Source: Ignavibacteriota bacterium (GTDB lineage: Bacteria > Bacteroidota > Ignavibacteria > UBA10030). From it: 64,000 bases of DNA. Every line of letters starts with the position of its first letter. Position 1 is the first letter of the stretch. The stretch spans positions 2,432,001 through 2,496,000 of the forward strand of contig OY969585.1 of the NCBI GenBank assembly GCA_963701295.1, in the 5' to 3' direction. Position numbers and translations under genes: made by a program. Shown piece after piece: positions 41,702-53,251 of the stretch. The notes below the pieces were generated by a model, which made no database searches, had not been told where the DNA came from, and saw only the letters and a list, made by a program, of their open reading frames with translations.

Positions 41702-41897
41702 CCCTAACCAGGCGCTCAAGCTGACGGAATGAGCGTACTGCAATTTGCATGGCTGATGGTGGGTTTAGGTTTTTATTATTACCTTTTCAGTACCTCGTTG
41801 GTTAGGGATTAATTAATTTGGTTATCAGTGTAAACTTGTTTCGTTTTGTGTATTTTGATAATTATCAGCGCCGCAGCTTAGCGCCAGTCCGTTAGGG
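41702..41897 (+). repeat. attC 9
   Basis: CCCTAAC...GTTAGGG. Confidence 0.9.
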
Positions 41898-41932
41898 CGC
41901 AAGCGTCAAAAACTTAAACGGACAAACATATC

Positions 41933-42331
41933 ATGAAGAAAGAACATACAATCGTCAGAAAGCTTCTTGCAACTCAAAAATGGTCAGAGGAAACCGCACG
42001 TCTAGCCTATCGTGCTCGCTACAAATGCGAGTATTGCGGCTTGGATCTACTTTCTTCTCCAGATATATACAGATTATGGCAAGTAGATCATATCGTTCCA
42101 AAATCTAAAGGCGGTTCAGACGCCATTTCAAATAAAGCCACTGCTTGCATGCCGTGCAACATTTACTTCAAGCGTAAGTGGAATCCAAGAAATAATGTCG
42201 GCCCCAAAGCCACGCGCAAACAATTGATTTTAGCAGTTCAACAATATGTTCGAGAAAAGAAAGCGGAAACAGAGAAAGAACTAATTGAAGTCCATCAAAT
42301 TGTCGGATACAATAAAAAGCTTGCGCCCTAA
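41933..42331 (+). CDS. Cassette: HNH endonuclease
   Basis: CEYCG...VDHIVPKSKGG..N..ACMPCN. Confidence 0.88.
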   Translation: MKKEHTIVRKLLATQKWSEETARLAYRARYKCEYCGLDLLSSPDIYRLWQVDHIVPKSKGGSDAISNKATACMPCNIYFKRKWNPRNNVGPKATRKQLILAVQQYVREKKAETEKELIEVHQIVGYNKKLAP

Positions 42332-42399
42332 CCAGTTTAAAAAGGAAAGAGTCAAGTAAATAATATACTCCCGATGCGTTCCGCGCAATCGGAATGCAG

Positions 42400-42655
42400 A
42401 GTTCTTTAACATTAAGGACGACCGAATCCGTGCCGATGCCGCGTTCTCTATCGAATAGACAGGCGATTACCAGAGCAATGCCGTCCAAACCAGTTTACGG
42501 ATTTACATTCACTCATTGAAGAAACGATGGTGAAAGCGTATCTCGTCGAGCGAGATGTTCCAGATATTACCACGGCACAGCGCACTCTCTTCCCAATCCA
42601 GCGAACGATCCCGACGCAGTCGGGATCAGTTAGGAAAGCGGGCTTGAGAGGCGCG
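42400..42655 (-). ncRNA. Bridge (seek) RNA, copy 1; ends approximate
   Basis: Guide segments matching the attC target (42629-34, 42598-603) and the IS circle junction (42563-72, 42490-97) sit in two stem-closed internal loops. Confidence 0.8.
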
Positions 42656-43631
42656 GCCACTGCTGAGATTTATGCCGGCTGATCGGCTGACCTTTGAGAC
42701 CTTTATATATTGTTTTGTTTTTTAAGACATAGTAAACAATCTTCGCAAGTTCTTTGGCAACGACGGTTCGCGCAGTCGCCTCATTGGAGCGACGAGCTAA
42801 TTTCTGGAATAAGCGTTTGTATTCCGGATAGTACTGAATAGCATGAACAGCGGCATCGGAGAAGGCGATTTTGAGATACTTATTGCCGTCTTTGCTGGAG
42901 CGATGGTGCACAGAGCGATTGGAGTTATCGGCAGCAGGGACGAGTCGGCAGTAAGAGACAAACTTTTTATCGGAGTCGAATCGTTCAATGCCGTCGATTT
43001 CAAGATACACCGTGAATGCGGTGAGCTTGCCGATACCTGGAATGTGCAAGAGCCGTTGAATATCGTCGTTGGGAATCAGCACAGGATGGAGAGATTTTTC
43101 CAGCGAGAGGATCTGAGCAGTAAAAGTGTCTCTGGTATGTTGCAAGACAGCAAGTTGAAAACGATACGGATCCGGAACAGAGCCGTTAAATTTGGTCTGA
43201 ATACTGTAGAGACGCAGAAGACTGGCAGTTCGTTGCTGAACGAGCCGTAGACGAATACGCATGGTATCGCGCAGGCCGCGTAGTTCTCGGCTGATTTTGT
43301 GAGCCCGTGGAATGAGTCCCTGTCGTAAGAGAAGAGCAAGAGTTTGCGAATCGACTTTATCTGTTTTAACTTTAGCATAACTGATGGCTTTGAGATATTT
43401 GGCGTGAGCAAGGACAAGCTCGATGCCGTGATCGCTGAGAAGATCGTTGAGCCAGTACCATCCTGTGGTAGACTCAACGACTGCGTGATGAGGACCGGGC
43501 AGAGAGTGGAAGTAATCAAGAACACGTTCATTGTTATTCTCGACACGTTGTCGCTTGATGACAGCACCAGTGTCATCAACAGTGGTGATAAAACAATTAT
43601 CAGAATGCAAATCGATACCTGAGTAATACAT
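42630..43631 (-). CDS. IS110-family DEDD recombinase/transposase
   Basis: MYYSGIDLH, VVESTT, KTDKVDS, IPGIG, catalytic-Ser region DNSN; AAGGAG RBS. Confidence 0.95.
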   Translation of the reverse strand: MYYSGIDLHSDNCFITTVDDTGAVIKRQRVENNNERVLDYFHSLPGPHHAVVESTTGWYWLNDLLSDHGIELVLAHAKYLKAISYAKVKTDKVDSQTLALLLRQGLIPRAHKISRELRGLRDTMRIRLRLVQQRTASLLRLYSIQTKFNGSVPDPYRFQLAVLQHTRDTFTAQILSLEKSLHPVLIPNDDIQRLLHIPGIGKLTAFTVYLEIDGIERFDSDKKFVSYCRLVPAADNSNRSVHHRSSKDGNKYLKIAFSDAAVHAIQYYPEYKRLFQKLARRSNEATARTVVAKELAKIVYYVLKNKTIYKGLKGQPISRHKSQQWPRLSSPLS

Positions 43632-43888
43632 GGGAATCTCCTTAGATTGTGGATGTTGGTGACCTAGAGAATTATCAATGTACATAATCGGGAGATTCCT
43701 TTTTGGTAATATCCAGCGGCTCAAGCTGACCGGATGAGCGTTGGTGCGTTAAGCATGGCGAGCATAGGTTTCGGTTCTTAATAATAAACTTTTCAGCGTG
43801 AACTTGTTTCGTTTGGTACATTTTGAAAGTATTCAGCGCGGCAGCTTAGCCGCCATCCGTTAGCTGCCACCACAAATAAGAGGATATT

Positions 43889-47688: not shown

Positions 47689-47776
47689 AATAAATAGCTG
47701 CCACCTAACCAGTTTAAAAAGGAAAGAGTCAAGTAAATAATATACTCCCGATGCGTTCCGCGCAATCGGAATGCAG

Positions 47777-48032
47777 AGTTCTTTAACATTAAGGACGACC
47801 GAATCCGTGCCGATGCCGCGTTCTCTATCGAATAGACAGGCGATTACCAGAGCAATGCCGTCCAAACCAGTTTACGGATTTACATTCACTCATTGAAGAA
47901 ACGATGGTGAAAGCGTATCTCGTCGAGCGAGATGTTCCAGATATTACCACGGCACAGCGCACTCTCTTCCCAATCCAGCGAACGATCCCGACGCAGTCGG
48001 GATCAGTTAGGAAAGCGGGCTTGAGAGGCGCG
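47777..48032 (-). ncRNA. Bridge (seek) RNA, copy 2; ends approximate
   Basis: Same sequence as copy 1. Confidence 0.8.
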
Positions 48033-49008
48033 GCCACTGCTGAGATTTATGCCGGCTGATCGGCTGACCTTTGAGACCTTTATATATTGTTTTGTTTTTT
48101 AAGACATAGTAAACAATCTTCGCAAGTTCTTTGGCAACGACGGTTCGCGCAGTCGCCTCATTGGAGCGACGAGCTAATTTCTGGAATAAGCGTTTGTATT
48201 CCGGATAGTACTGAATAGCATGAACAGCGGCATCGGAGAAGGCGATTTTGAGATACTTATTGCCGTCTTTGCTGGAGCGATGGTGCACAGAGCGATTGGA
48301 GTTATCGGCAGCAGGGACGAGTCGGCAGTAAGAGACAAACTTTTTATCGGAGTCGAATCGTTCAATGCCGTCGATTTCAAGATACACCGTGAATGCGGTG
48401 AGCTTGCCGATACCTGGAATGTGCAAGAGCCGTTGAATATCGTCGTTGGGAATCAGCACAGGATGGAGAGATTTTTCCAGCGAGAGGATCTGAGCAGTAA
48501 AAGTGTCTCTGGTATGTTGCAAGACAGCAAGTTGAAAACGATACGGATCCGGAACAGAGCCGTTAAATTTGGTCTGAATACTGTAGAGACGCAGAAGACT
48601 GGCAGTTCGTTGCTGAACGAGCCGTAGACGAATACGCATGGTATCGCGCAGGCCGCGTAGTTCTCGGCTGATTTTGTGAGCCCGTGGAATGAGTCCCTGT
48701 CGTAAGAGAAGAGCAAGAGTTTGCGAATCGACTTTATCTGTTTTAACTTTAGCATAACTGATGGCTTTGAGATATTTGGCGTGAGCAAGGACAAGCTCGA
48801 TGCCGTGATCGCTGAGAAGATCGTTGAGCCAGTACCATCCTGTGGTAGACTCAACGACTGCGTGATGAGGACCGGGCAGAGAGTGGAAGTAATCAAGAAC
48901 ACGTTCATTGTTATTCTCGACACGTTGTCGCTTGATGACAGCACCAGTGTCATCAACAGTGGTGATAAAACAATTATCAGAATGCAAATCGATACCTGAG
49001 TAATACAT
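48007..49008 (-). CDS. IS110-family DEDD recombinase/transposase
   Basis: Protein identical to copy 1 in the ORF track. Confidence 0.95.
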   Translation of the reverse strand: MYYSGIDLHSDNCFITTVDDTGAVIKRQRVENNNERVLDYFHSLPGPHHAVVESTTGWYWLNDLLSDHGIELVLAHAKYLKAISYAKVKTDKVDSQTLALLLRQGLIPRAHKISRELRGLRDTMRIRLRLVQQRTASLLRLYSIQTKFNGSVPDPYRFQLAVLQHTRDTFTAQILSLEKSLHPVLIPNDDIQRLLHIPGIGKLTAFTVYLEIDGIERFDSDKKFVSYCRLVPAADNSNRSVHHRSSKDGNKYLKIAFSDAAVHAIQYYPEYKRLFQKLARRSNEATARTVVAKELAKIVYYVLKNKTIYKGLKGQPISRHKSQQWPRLSSPLS

Positions 49009-49267
49009 GGGAATCTCCTTAGATTGTGGATGTTGGTGACCTAGAGAATTATCAATGTACATAATCGGGAGATTCCTTTTTGGTAATATCCAGCAACTCA
49101 AGCTGACCAAATGAGCGTGTTACGTTAAGCATGGCGTGTAGAGGTTTGGATGTTTAATAATAAACTTTTCAGCATGAACTTGTTTCGTTTTCAGCAACTT
49201 GTGGCTTTTCGTTGCCGCAGCTTAGTTGCCATCCGTTAGGCGGCAATAATAATGAAAGGATTCTATA

Positions 49268-50266: not shown

Positions 50267-53251
50267 ATGAGGCATTTATTAATATTATTAGTATTGCTAT
50301 CTATTTATATAGCCAGATCACAAACTCTGTCACTTCAAAAAGCATACCTATCATTTCCGGCTACGGGACAGCCGTATTGTATTACACATACGGATCTTAA
50401 TCACGATGGAATCGAAGATATTATTTCTGGTAATGCAGGTGGTATAAATGTGTCCGTTTTCTATGGGAGCAGAACAGCTCCCTATTATCAATCTGCTCGA
50501 CCTTTTGGAGATTCGATAAATACCGTTAGTTGTATAACAACAGGGGATATTAATCAAGATGGTTGGCCGGATATTGTGTATGGAACATACAATCTTATTC
50601 AAGATACAGTAAGCAATAAAGTGATAATATTGCAATCGTCATCCGGTGGATTAAATTTTAATCAAACTCTAGAATTCTCGTTTACCGAAAAACCAAATGC
50701 AATTTCTATCTTTGATGTTAATGAAGATTCACTTAACGATATTGTTGTTGCTCATGGTCATACGATTTCAATCTATACAGCTTCAACTACTGCAGGGCAA
50801 TTTAATTCACCTATAAATATCATTTTAACATTATCTGATTCAGCTTCTTCAATCAAATATGCCGCTATACAACAAATGCGTGCTATTGACATGAATGGAG
50901 ATGGATACAAAGACTTAGTAGTTACCGATGGGTCTAGTTTGTATGTACTTACATTAATAAAAAGTTTCCCATATTTATCTTTGCATGCACAATTTAGTAT
51001 TCCCCTTCATCAGAATGAGACCGGTCAAGATTTTGCAGTAGGGGACATTAACAATGATGGAACTAATGATGTTGTTGTCCTTTGCCGGCAAATGTATGCC
51101 GATAGTGTAGCAGTGTTCTTTAATGATGGCAAGGGAATTCTTTCTTTCAATAAAAAATATGTCTTGGGTCCACCAAATACTGATCTCGGTGAAAATCATA
51201 TTGTTCTAGCGGATCTGAATAATGACAATCGCCTTGATATTGCAACATCTAATATGTTATACACAGGGCAAAAACCAATGATAAGTGTTATGTTACAAGA
51301 TCCCAATTCGTTTGGATTTCTGCCTAGCACTCAATATGTATTGGATGCAACAAGCATAGATTTAATCATAGTTGATGCAAATAACGACGGCAATAAAGAT
51401 ATTGTTACTGTAGATCCAGATAACGCAGATATAGCACTTGTGCTTGCCAATAAAACACCGGGTGACTATTCTTCCATTGAATATTTCAATGTCCCTTTTG
51501 TACCATTTGCCATTACTTCTGGAGACATAAATTGCGATGGATATCCAGATATTATTACAACTGGTTGGGGTGATACAACTGGTGATAACTATCTCTCTCT
51601 TATACTCTCAGCAAATCAATCCGATAAATTTGATTCACCAAAGAATTTGCTCCTATCGCATACTATGTATGATCCATCAGCACGAAAGATAGAAACTGCT
51701 GATATTAATAATGATAGTTTACTTGACGTTGTTATAAGCTACCTTCTTATTCCTGGAATTCTCACTCTTCCAGGATCTGGCACAGCTGATCTATTTAATT
51801 TAGGTAGTTACTGGCCAACATCAGGCCAAGCAAATGATGATTTTGGAATTTTCGATATCGATCAGAATGATACTACAGACATTATTGTGAATAATTCAAG
51901 AAACTTCGACATAGAATACTTAAAAGGAGAGGGTAGCGGTATTTTTGATTTACCCAAAACATTATTTAGTGATACTCTAAAATCTAAATTTACCATCTGT
52001 GATGTAAATCGAGATGGTAGATTGGATATAGTTGCCCTAGAAGGAGATAATCTCGTAAGTTATGTCAATAAAGGGAACGACATATTTGATAAAGTAATAA
52101 GTAAAAGCATAAACAAGACTGTTGTAGATATGATTGCGATTGATCTCAATGGAGACGGCAATCCAGATATTGTTATTGCATTTGGCGACAACTCACAGAC
52201 ACTCGTTGTCCAGTTAGCAAGTGATTCTCTGGGTCATTTTAGTCCTCCAATTTCATTAACGGTTCCAGGACACCAAGGGACCCATAATGTGGGAATTGCG
52301 GATATGAATGGAGATGGTCTTCTAGATATCGTTACTGAGACCTTTTCAGATATTTGTGTTTTCACTGCTCTTCCTGGAGGTGGATTTTCAAGTCCATTAT
52401 TATTTCCAACTGGTACAGGAGAATGGAAATTATGTATAGACGATTTTAATGGTGATCTAAAACCCGATGTTTGCATTTGTAATGGATTCTTGGTTAAATA
52501 TGTTAAGAACTTGACTCCTGGTACTCCATCTGGGGTGATAACAAAAGCTTATATTAATTCCCCGTCAATACAGACCCCTTTCTACTTTTCAACAGGCAAC
52601 ATAAATCGATTCGGTAAGGTTATATTAGACAATTATGATGGATCGACCATCGCTATCCGAACTCACTCGGCTGCACAACCGCCAAATGTTTCGACACAAA
52701 GTAAAGTAGTTAAACGTTATTATGAAATATCGACTAATGGAAAGATTTCATCCGGTCAAATCACATTACCGTATGAATTGAGTGAAGTATCCATCGTAGG
52801 GCTAAAACCTAAGGGATTGCATTTATTTCATTATATGAACGGCGTATGGCAACTTGAACAAAGCAAAGTCAACATTGCAAATCAAACTCTTACGGCATTA
52901 ACAATTAAACTAGATGGAATCTGGGTTATGTGTGATCCAAACGATCATCCAATAACAGAGGTATTTAATGGCAATACAAACCTACCATATAAATGTTCAC
53001 TGTTACAAAACTATCCTAACCCTTTTAATCCATCCACAACTTTTTCTTTTAGTCTTGCATCAAAATCTTTTGTGTCGCTGAAAGTATTTGATATGTTAGG
53101 AAGGGAAGTTGCAATCATTATCTCAGAAGATATGTCAGCAGGAAGTTACACGCGTGAATGGAACGCAACAAATATTTCAAGTGGTGTCTACTTTTATCGT
53201 TTGCAGGCAGGTCTATTCACAGAAACCAAGAAATTGATTTTATTACGTTAA
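50267..53251 (+). CDS. Cassette: FG-GAP/VCBS repeat protein with T9SS C-terminal domain
   Basis: Many D.N.DG..D repeats; QNYPNPFNP tail. Confidence 0.9.
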   Translation: MRHLLILLVLLSIYIARSQTLSLQKAYLSFPATGQPYCITHTDLNHDGIEDIISGNAGGINVSVFYGSRTAPYYQSARPFGDSINTVSCITTGDINQDGWPDIVYGTYNLIQDTVSNKVIILQSSSGGLNFNQTLEFSFTEKPNAISIFDVNEDSLNDIVVAHGHTISIYTASTTAGQFNSPINIILTLSDSASSIKYAAIQQMRAIDMNGDGYKDLVVTDGSSLYVLTLIKSFPYLSLHAQFSIPLHQNETGQDFAVGDINNDGTNDVVVLCRQMYADSVAVFFNDGKGILSFNKKYVLGPPNTDLGENHIVLADLNNDNRLDIATSNMLYTGQKPMISVMLQDPNSFGFLPSTQYVLDATSIDLIIVDANNDGNKDIVTVDPDNADIALVLANKTPGDYSSIEYFNVPFVPFAITSGDINCDGYPDIITTGWGDTTGDNYLSLILSANQSDKFDSPKNLLLSHTMYDPSARKIETADINNDSLLDVVISYLLIPGILTLPGSGTADLFNLGSYWPTSGQANDDFGIFDIDQNDTTDIIVNNSRNFDIEYLKGEGSGIFDLPKTLFSDTLKSKFTICDVNRDGRLDIVALEGDNLVSYVNKGNDIFDKVISKSINKTVVDMIAIDLNGDGNPDIVIAFGDNSQTLVVQLASDSLGHFSPPISLTVPGHQGTHNVGIADMNGDGLLDIVTETFSDICVFTALPGGGFSSPLLFPTGTGEWKLCIDDFNGDLKPDVCICNGFLVKYVKNLTPGTPSGVITKAYINSPSIQTPFYFSTGNINRFGKVILDNYDGSTIAIRTHSAAQPPNVSTQSKVVKRYYEISTNGKISSGQITLPYELSEVSIVGLKPKGLHLFHYMNGVWQLEQSKVNIANQTLTALTIKLDGIWVMCDPNDHPITEVFNGNTNLPYKCSLLQNYPNPFNPSTTFSFSLASKSFVSLKVFDMLGREVAIIISEDMSAGSYTREWNATNISSGVYFYRLQAGLFTETKKLILLR

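Follow-up and report, generated by a model that had tools for sequence, protein, structure and literature searches.

RNA-guided targeting of attC sites by insertion sequences has already been published. In the available portions of PMC11187229, seekRNAs matching both strands of the target are reported to co-purify with ISKpn4 and ISPst6. These two elements belong to the IS1111-attC group (ISKpn4, ISPst6, ISPa25, and ISPa21), which is described there as lying at the R''-L'' end of attC in the orientation opposite to the cassettes, with an RNA downstream of the gene, inverted repeats, a defined guide order, and a length of about 1.4 kb. The element reported here resembles the group in all of these respects. 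The same portions note IS110-side groups with a downstream non-coding region. In IS621 and ISCro4 (PDB 8wt6 and 9t56), as far as the available portions of PMC11208160, PMC11208158, and PMC13626964 go, the guides follow the order LTG-RTG-LDG-RDG (left and right target guides, then left and right donor guides), the guided DNA is a 14-nt window around a 2-nt core (for IS621, PMC11208158 and PMC11208160), AU forms a handshake against donor A6-T7, there is a junction promoter, and the recombinase has a DEDD domain and a serine. The present element is alike in these traits as well, with dinucleotides that are handshake-like and a junction promoter that is predicted. The PMC11208158 excerpt describes the handshake guide arrangement for IS621 after strand exchange, and the PMC11208160 excerpt predicts donor-binding bases in multi-loops of 3' RNAs.

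The window analysed here is a stretch of 64,000 nucleotides from a 3.64-Mb Ignavibacteriota genome. An IS110-family element of 1381 bp (one CC core counted) lies at positions 42334-43714 on the minus strand. The genome has nine copies of it (family A) with zero differences inside the element; the second identical copy in the window lies at 47709-49093 (minus strand, approximate ends) within a CCAGCA attC. Two further, diverged copies (family B) encode a recombinase with 89% amino acid identity to that of family A. The recombinase gene (42630-43631, minus strand; 333 amino acids plus stop) is preceded by an AAGGAG ribosome site and is flanked by non-coding stretches of 296 bp downstream and 81 bp upstream. 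Its product matches PF01548 and PF02371 of Pfam and NF033542 of NCBIfam above cut-off, identifying it as an IS110 transposase. It has the DEDD RuvC-like domain and the PF02371 domain with the catalytic serine (D7/E53/D91/D94 and S237 by alignment), and the serine motif is SN, not SG. Insertion is site-specific, with a short shared core and no further duplication, as in the IS110 family in the broad sense. No close characterised relative was named by the Pfam look-up, the protein searches, or the PDB search. The original prediction had called the recombinase compact; its 333 residues fall inside the 330-350 amino acids stated for IS1111 transposases in the available part of PMC11187229. Subterminal inverted repeats, AAAAAGGAA at 42339-42347 and TTCCTTTTT at 43696-43704 (plus strand), pair with each other. 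They are 9 bp long here and up to 13 bp in relatives, and would be 15 bp apart in the predicted circle, compared with about 10 bp in the IS1111-attC group.

As for the insertion site, the element splits an attC. The left half (42323-42333, plus strand) has the R'' box GCGCCCTAAC, and the right part (43715-43865, plus strand) has the spacer AGCG, the L'' box GCTCAAGC at 43719-43726, L' at 43844-43850, and R' (GTTAGCT) at 43859-43865. All 11 copies of families A and B occupy the same attC position, between R'' and L'', in the orientation opposite to the cassettes. The fixed site is the last C of the R'' TAAC plus the next base. This insertion nucleotide is unlike that of ISKpn4, ISPst6, and ISPa21 (the ISKpn4 insertion point is tabulated in the available part of PMC13604230): the ISPa21 insertion point follows TAACAATTCA and lies about 5 nt deeper in the site, while the present element lies nearer R''. 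Long attC sites, most of them 145-200 bp, number about 100 in the genome and fall into at least eight arrays (G000:C1 near 0.23, 1.16, 1.80, 2.38-2.50, 2.82, 3.13-3.17, 3.44, and 3.53-3.56 Mb), with one intact integrase gene. The phrase "this integron" in the original prediction is not supported: the sole intact intI (C1:3566721) is about 1.09 Mb away, beside another array with two element copies. C1:581744 holds a short fragment of intI that is nearly identical, and some cassette ends recur across several arrays. About ten scars were also seen, in which, after an R''-like box, nothing but the initial tens of bases of the right end of the element is present (G000:C1 162893, 693239, 1810043, 2271822, 2382025, 2384978, 2387519, 3157483, 3160836, and 3333610). 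Several of them continue into the L'-R' half of an attC, and most bear an older CCAT or CCAC end.

Downstream of the recombinase gene, a bridge-type RNA of about 190 nt is predicted at 42475-42663 (minus strand), beginning within the last codons of the gene. The four guide words of the original prediction were found on the minus strand where it had placed them: CCTAAC at 42634-42629, CGCTGG at 42603-42598, TGGTAATATC at 42572-42563, and TAAACTGG at 42497-42490. When the 260-nt RNA region was dinucleotide-shuffled 5000 times, all four never occurred together, and three of them did so twice. On the minus strand, the left target guide spans 42628-42635, including CCUAAC. The right target guide (42596-42604) reads UCGCUGG at 42604-42598, for positions 14-8 of the target, followed by a handshake-like AU (42597-42596) complementary to donor A6-T7. 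The left donor guide (42562-42569) is UAAUAUC-U, for positions 2-9. The right donor guide (42488-42496) is AAACUGG, for positions 14-8, followed by UU (42489-42488) complementary to target A6-A7. Guide-DNA matching among homologues is high at left positions 2-8 and right positions 8-14, and falls before 2 and after 14; right-target positions 13-14 match in just 66% and 56%. The 10-nt match proposed for the left donor guide is not supported, its conservation being restricted to positions 2-8. The handshake dinucleotides are complementary here and in most homologues (AU in 124 of the 133 parsed, UU in 120 of 129). Because these bases do not vary and were in part set by the parser, they amount to a resemblance to IS621 rather than to evidence of covariation. 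In the left guides the last base is U, at position 9, which can only wobble with a CC core and mismatches a CA core. The stop codon of the recombinase gene (TAA, 42632-42630) lies within the left target guide, as had been noticed, and likewise in 110 of 126 elements. In family B, UCA stands where the family A stop sits and the reading frame extends four codons further. Both family B copies have target guides that fit poorly, and the right donor guide has changed from ACUGG to AAUGG; the end of one copy follows this change and that of the other does not. The family B left target guide, CCUCAC, is a poor fit to both occupied sites. These two copies (G000:C1 2396320-2397800 and 2408629-2410100) have 1222 bp plus 91 bp of right flank in common, and are unlike in the distal right end and the left flank. 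This pattern suggests recombination between copies.

The single-sequence fold of the RNA is by itself unremarkable (z -1.61), and no Rfam family matched within the window at gathering thresholds. The structure becomes clearer in comparison. In an alignment of 50 homologous RNAs, 99.1% of the cells pair in 15 pairs, with two-sided changes in nine of them; since the structure was derived by RNAalifold from the same alignment, this pairing figure leans towards it. None of 500 shuffles reached the observed level, and slid controls paired in 26-45%. The target arm (42580-42654, minus strand) has a 9-bp stem (42654-42646 with 42589-42580) with two-sided changes in 8 of 9 pairs, a CCC/GGG helix, and an apical hairpin (42627-42607) of variable sequence. 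The closing stem of the original prediction (42640-42654 with 42580-42594) is present as pairing but consists of two helices, GCGCCUCUC (42654-42646) with 42589-42580 and CCC (42642-42640) with GGG (42594-42592). An outer stem joins the 5' start to the 3' end, GCAGUG (42663-42658) with CAUUGC (42480-42475), and forms in most homologues (mean -9.2 kcal/mol versus -7.9 in shuffles, 0/5000). The donor arm has an apical stem, GGA/UCC with A-U and G-C variants, around a variable two-hairpin insert (42499-42561, minus strand); its A-U pair is G-C in 21 of the 50 homologues. The UGCCGU/ACGGCA stem proposed to close the donor loop forms in this copy and is fully formed in just 3 of 50 homologues. Beyond three closely similar sequences this stem is weak; its mean of -4.3 kcal/mol was also reached by 0/5000 shuffles, driven by a few rows. 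The alternatives for the lower closure, CC/GG and GGC/GCC, are both on invariant bases. The supposedly unusually large donor loop turned out to be a variable apical insert of 12-68 nt (59 here) between normally sized guides. L035, L058, and L074 have natural minimal RNAs with 12-13 nt between the donor guides, which may be useful as compact scaffolds. In L011, L013, L122, L123, and L139, short palindromic repeats are inserted into the RNA, some within guides or stems. Assembled contigs of relatives (four RNA and four DNA runs) span the RNA region and are uninformative on ends, strand, and level; the end-to-end joint is not among the contig matches listed, which is no evidence either way.

Do the guides change together with the DNA they match? 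The original prediction had named this as a check. I collected homologues from 74 genome loci (mostly Ignavibacteriota and Bacteroidota) and 80 metagenome loci. Guides and junctions were parsed by conserved motif anchors, so that invariance at positions 5-9 and in the handshake is partly built in. Seven loci in which a palindrome disrupts guide parsing (L011, L013, L122, L123, L139, L142, and L156) were excluded from the statistics, as were loci without an end or an anchor. Across the homologues, changes in the flanks are accompanied by changes in both target guides and in the right donor guide. In the genome set (46 guide sets), guide-DNA identity was 0.99 for the right donor guide versus 0.74 after shuffling guides, 0.79 versus 0.61 for the right target guide, and 0.88 versus 0.81 for the left target guide, with 0/3000 shuffles reaching the observed value in each case. 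The corresponding values in the metagenome set were 0.96/0.78, 0.88/0.65, and 0.94/0.91 (0-1 of 3000). Because kin are not independent, a tree was also computed from the coding DNA that precedes the RNA, and elements with different guides were paired so that no two pairs shared any part of their tree paths; for each pair, own and cross matches were compared (means of 200 draws). Own outnumbered cross matches by 14.3:2.0 of 27 pairs for the right target guide (median p 0.004; worst draw p 0.096), by 12.4:0.6 of 23 for the left target guide (median p 0.001; worst draw p 0.057), and by 10.6:0 of 13 for the right donor guide (median p 0.001). The left donor guide is nearly invariant and was tied in 14 of 16 pairs. 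Crossed and slid controls were null or reversed in this multi-column test. Single-column pair tests, which are underpowered, all pointed in the expected direction, none reaching p 0.05, and one control leaned likewise. The target loop is predicted to pair with both target strands and covaries with the target. The donor loop is predicted to pair with both strands of the end junctions, its right guide covarying and its left guide being near-invariant.

The donor loop is the point at which a seek-type arrangement would differ. In such an arrangement, only the target loop guides, the ends are recognised by the protein via the subterminal inverted repeats, and the donor "guides" are end-derived duplications or of minor importance. 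Inverted repeats of 9-13 bp do exist, the tree test yields no information on the left donor guide, the donor-loop closing helix rests on invariant bases, and in the available part of PMC11187229 an 82-nt target-matching seekRNA of ISEc11 is predominant and reported to be sufficient for transposition. However, the right donor guide follows five different versions of the right end (AGTTT, ATTTT, ACTTT, TCTTT, and GCTTA; 42 of 45 guide sets exact), wins all decided independent pairs, and mirrors the target loop in position and flanks, which makes the seek-type arrangement quite improbable. As a separate observation, the distal right end of L179 (G385:C1 about 52000-52700) is tandemly duplicated from the right donor guide onward; the guide sequence there equals the true end sequence, and the duplication possibly arose by recombination at the guide itself. 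With guides in both loops, the IS110-family recombinase and its downstream two-loop RNA appear to be programmed for attC and for the element's own ends, as originally predicted.

The target guides appear to be tuned to attC subtypes. Among 100 empty attC sites found by pattern, the spacer is CAGG in 53, CAGC in 28, and other in 19. The family A right target guide spells CCAGCG, and eight of the nine copies lie in sites with a CAGC spacer, a type that makes up 28 of the 100 empty sites (one-sided Fisher p 5e-4). With the duplicated cassette counted once, the figure is 7/8 (p 1.5e-3). The remaining copy occupies a CAGGC site. The left target guide had no in-genome enrichment (8/9 versus 72/100 empty sites, p 0.25). 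Relatives with CGCCUGG guides are mostly in CAGG sites (21/24), and those with CGACUGG-type guides have T at the corresponding site position in 21 of 21 cases. In the homologue set, TCAA is found in the L'' register in 100 of 138 right flanks, and relatives at about 42% identity also occupy TAAC-AAGCG attC-like sites. L178 (G292:C17) and the Alteromonas locus L088, at about 30% identity, have TAAC-type left guides and much larger target arms. The flank of L178 is attC-like. That of L088 is not: it was considered as attC-targeting for its guide, and was not counted since its flank is without an L'' box.

The left junction (left target-core-right donor) reads CCTAA-CC-AGTTTAAAAAGG from 42327, with the CC core at 42332-42333, and the right junction (left donor-core-right target) reads TGGTAATAT-CC-AGCGGCTCAAGC up to 43726, with the core at 43713-43714 (plus strand). 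A CCAG core had been proposed. However, in 91 of 107 elements the left and right junctions disagree at positions 10-11; thus, the shared core is 2 nt, and CCAG is a coincidence of family A. The left/right cores of the 107 elements, a set that retains mis-parsed loci having both junctions, are CC/CC in 69, CA/CA in 20, CC/CA in 15, CC/CT in 2, and CA/CC in 1, and so are not of the CT type of IS621. One subclade of 22 elements has a CA core at the right junction in 21 of them, with a variable core at the left. This might fit a target core at the left and a donor core at the right, as from top-strand cutting after position 9. Single-strand copy-out is reported for IS621 in the available part of a preprint (10.64898/2026.08.31.748434), and the core pattern might, by analogy, fit an IS621-like copy-out too. 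Joining of the ends would also bring TTGACT (42350-42355, minus strand), a predicted -35 box, to 17 bp from GATATT (43713-43708). The TTGACT-17-GATATT arrangement arises on joining in 103 of 107 elements, although both motifs are parser anchors and their invariance is partly built in. A promoter scan of the linear element found no minus-strand promoter.

Was the element correctly called IS1111-type? Its layout is IS1111-like, with a long downstream non-coding region and subterminal inverted repeats. By descent it is not: the recombinase groups with the ISGsu4 family, outside the IS4321/ISEc11/ISPa21 clade. Full-length kinship to the tight IS1111 cluster, as used in the available part of PMC11187229, is lacking, with 21-24% identity to IS4321, ISEc11, and ISKpn2. 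The IS110 element flanked by smr and qacEdelta1 on plasmid pME-1a was taken to be ISPa21, following the available part of PMC7232449. The recombinase tree has 24 rows and long branches, with ISPa21 as the sole IS1111-attC representative and IS1111 itself absent; L042, L080, and L083 (no usable ORF) and L071 (frameshifted) were left out. In this tree, ISPa21 nests with IS4321, ISEc11, and ISKpn2 (support 100/99), the present recombinase lies outside, and the sister group to the present clade is the ISGsu4 family with Alteromonas L088 (95/92). The ISGsu4 family (plasmid loci L075, L086, L087, and L092; name taken from the RefSeq/GenBank product line) contains the nearest named relatives, at 30-35% identity. 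Similar motifs occur in their non-coding region at the 3' side, and inspection by eye gives a CA core; in contrast, the flanks are not attC-like in the four loci read. No paper on ISGsu4-family RNA or targets was found in the literature searched. Protein similarity to IS621 and ISCro4 is weak (E 1e-5 to 7e-8). Judging from the available portions of the papers on those two elements, the RNA here differs in lying 3' of the gene, in being read from the opposite donor strand, and in having both arms hang from an outer stem. The core is CC, CA, or CT here rather than CT, and U9 of the left guides wobbles or mismatches.

If the element were a divergent offshoot of the known IS1111-attC group, or had taken its guide RNA from there, it would share the site class, orientation, downstream RNA, inverted repeats, and guide order, all of which are indeed alike, and the group is represented in the tree by a single member. 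Such an origin is nevertheless very improbable, for the recombinase is 21.6% identical to ISPa21 versus 31% to the ISGsu4 family, forcing ISPa21 and the present clade together costs 90 lnL (AU p 2.8e-8), and the insertion nucleotide and guide words differ. The present element further differs from the group in its shorter target guides, its readable and covarying donor loop, and an RNA that overlaps the stop codon. The lineage, a sister to the ISGsu4 family, likely came to target attC independently of the ISKpn4/ISPa21 group. In the literature searched, no attC-targeting IS110 element outside the IS1111-attC group was found; an earlier entry in the ISfinder catalogue is possible. The mechanism is likely that of the known bridge RNAs, and the lineage and the insertion register appear to be new.

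The fixed site, the orientation, the guide-DNA complementarity, and the covariation can be read directly from the sequences compared, and the observation is real and well supported by this comparative evidence. The element is very probably an IS insertion whose predicted two-loop bridge RNA, at the 3' side, steers the DEDD/serine recombinase to a fixed attC position. It seems to work like a bridge recombinase and is IS1111-like in layout, while falling outside IS1111 and IS1111-attC by descent. By analogy to IS621, the joined ends of a circular form would make the TTGACT-17-GATATT promoter and transcribe gene and RNA together. The target loop would pair with the attC bottom strand at positions 2-8 and with the top strand at positions 8-14, and the donor loop would pair with the circle junction in the same manner. 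Strand exchange would take place at the 2-nt core, after which AU and UU would pair with the incoming strands. The circle would insert at one fixed position of double-stranded attC, with the spacer subtype (CAGC here) selected by the right guide. An uninterrupted neighbouring attC folds into a long bottom-strand hairpin (z -3.3), from which the top-strand spacer read by the right guide is absent; thus, the target would be a duplex, in contrast to that of the integron integrase. The integron integrase crossover falls at R', not R''. It is exceedingly improbable that the target is a folded single-stranded attC or that the integrase places the element, since the right guide covaries with the top-strand spacer missing from the hairpin and the insertion is in R'', not at the R' crossover, even though attC sites do fold, lopsided core inheritance (CC/CA 15, CC/CT 2, CA/CC 1) suggests a single-strand step somewhere, and a duplication of one cassette with its element is bounded by integrase crossover points.

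This duplication deserves description of its own. Positions 41887-43864 of the window are exactly duplicated at G000:C1 about 234180-236160, and comprise a short ORF, the element, and the split attC. The short ORF (41933-42331) has a candidate HNH-like HIVP/ACxxCN motif, seen by eye. Both boundaries of the duplicated cassette are at attC R' GTT boxes, and an element-free copy is absent. The separation of R'' and L'' by the insertion would be expected to disable the attC. Either the split attC still recombined, or two cassette copies were separately targeted (rough chance about 1 in 5). A broader reading, which I regard as doubtful when taken as a whole, is that the element is a separate RNA-guided integron parasite in a sequence arms race. 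In this reading, the right guide would have been repeatedly retuned among CAGC, CAGG, CAGT, and CATG, the resident guide would miss the commonest spacer, CAGG (53/100 empty sites), the lopsided cores would reflect top-strand-only exchange finished by the host, and the element would travel within a cassette that can still recombine through its split attC.

The chemistry itself is not new. As a lead for tools, the family may offer a natural bridge recombinase that has amplified recently, uses a core other than CT, and occurs with numerous natural variants of its guides; a design caveat is that the left target guide overlaps the stop codon. For elements of IS1111 layout, published accounts disagree on whether a donor loop exists, and the present locus would contribute, for this layout, an RNA of bridge type that has handshake-like bases and whose donor loop covaries. 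For the biology of the family, it appears to be a convergent second route to attC, reached independently of the known family, at another nucleotide and with guides tuned to attC subtypes.
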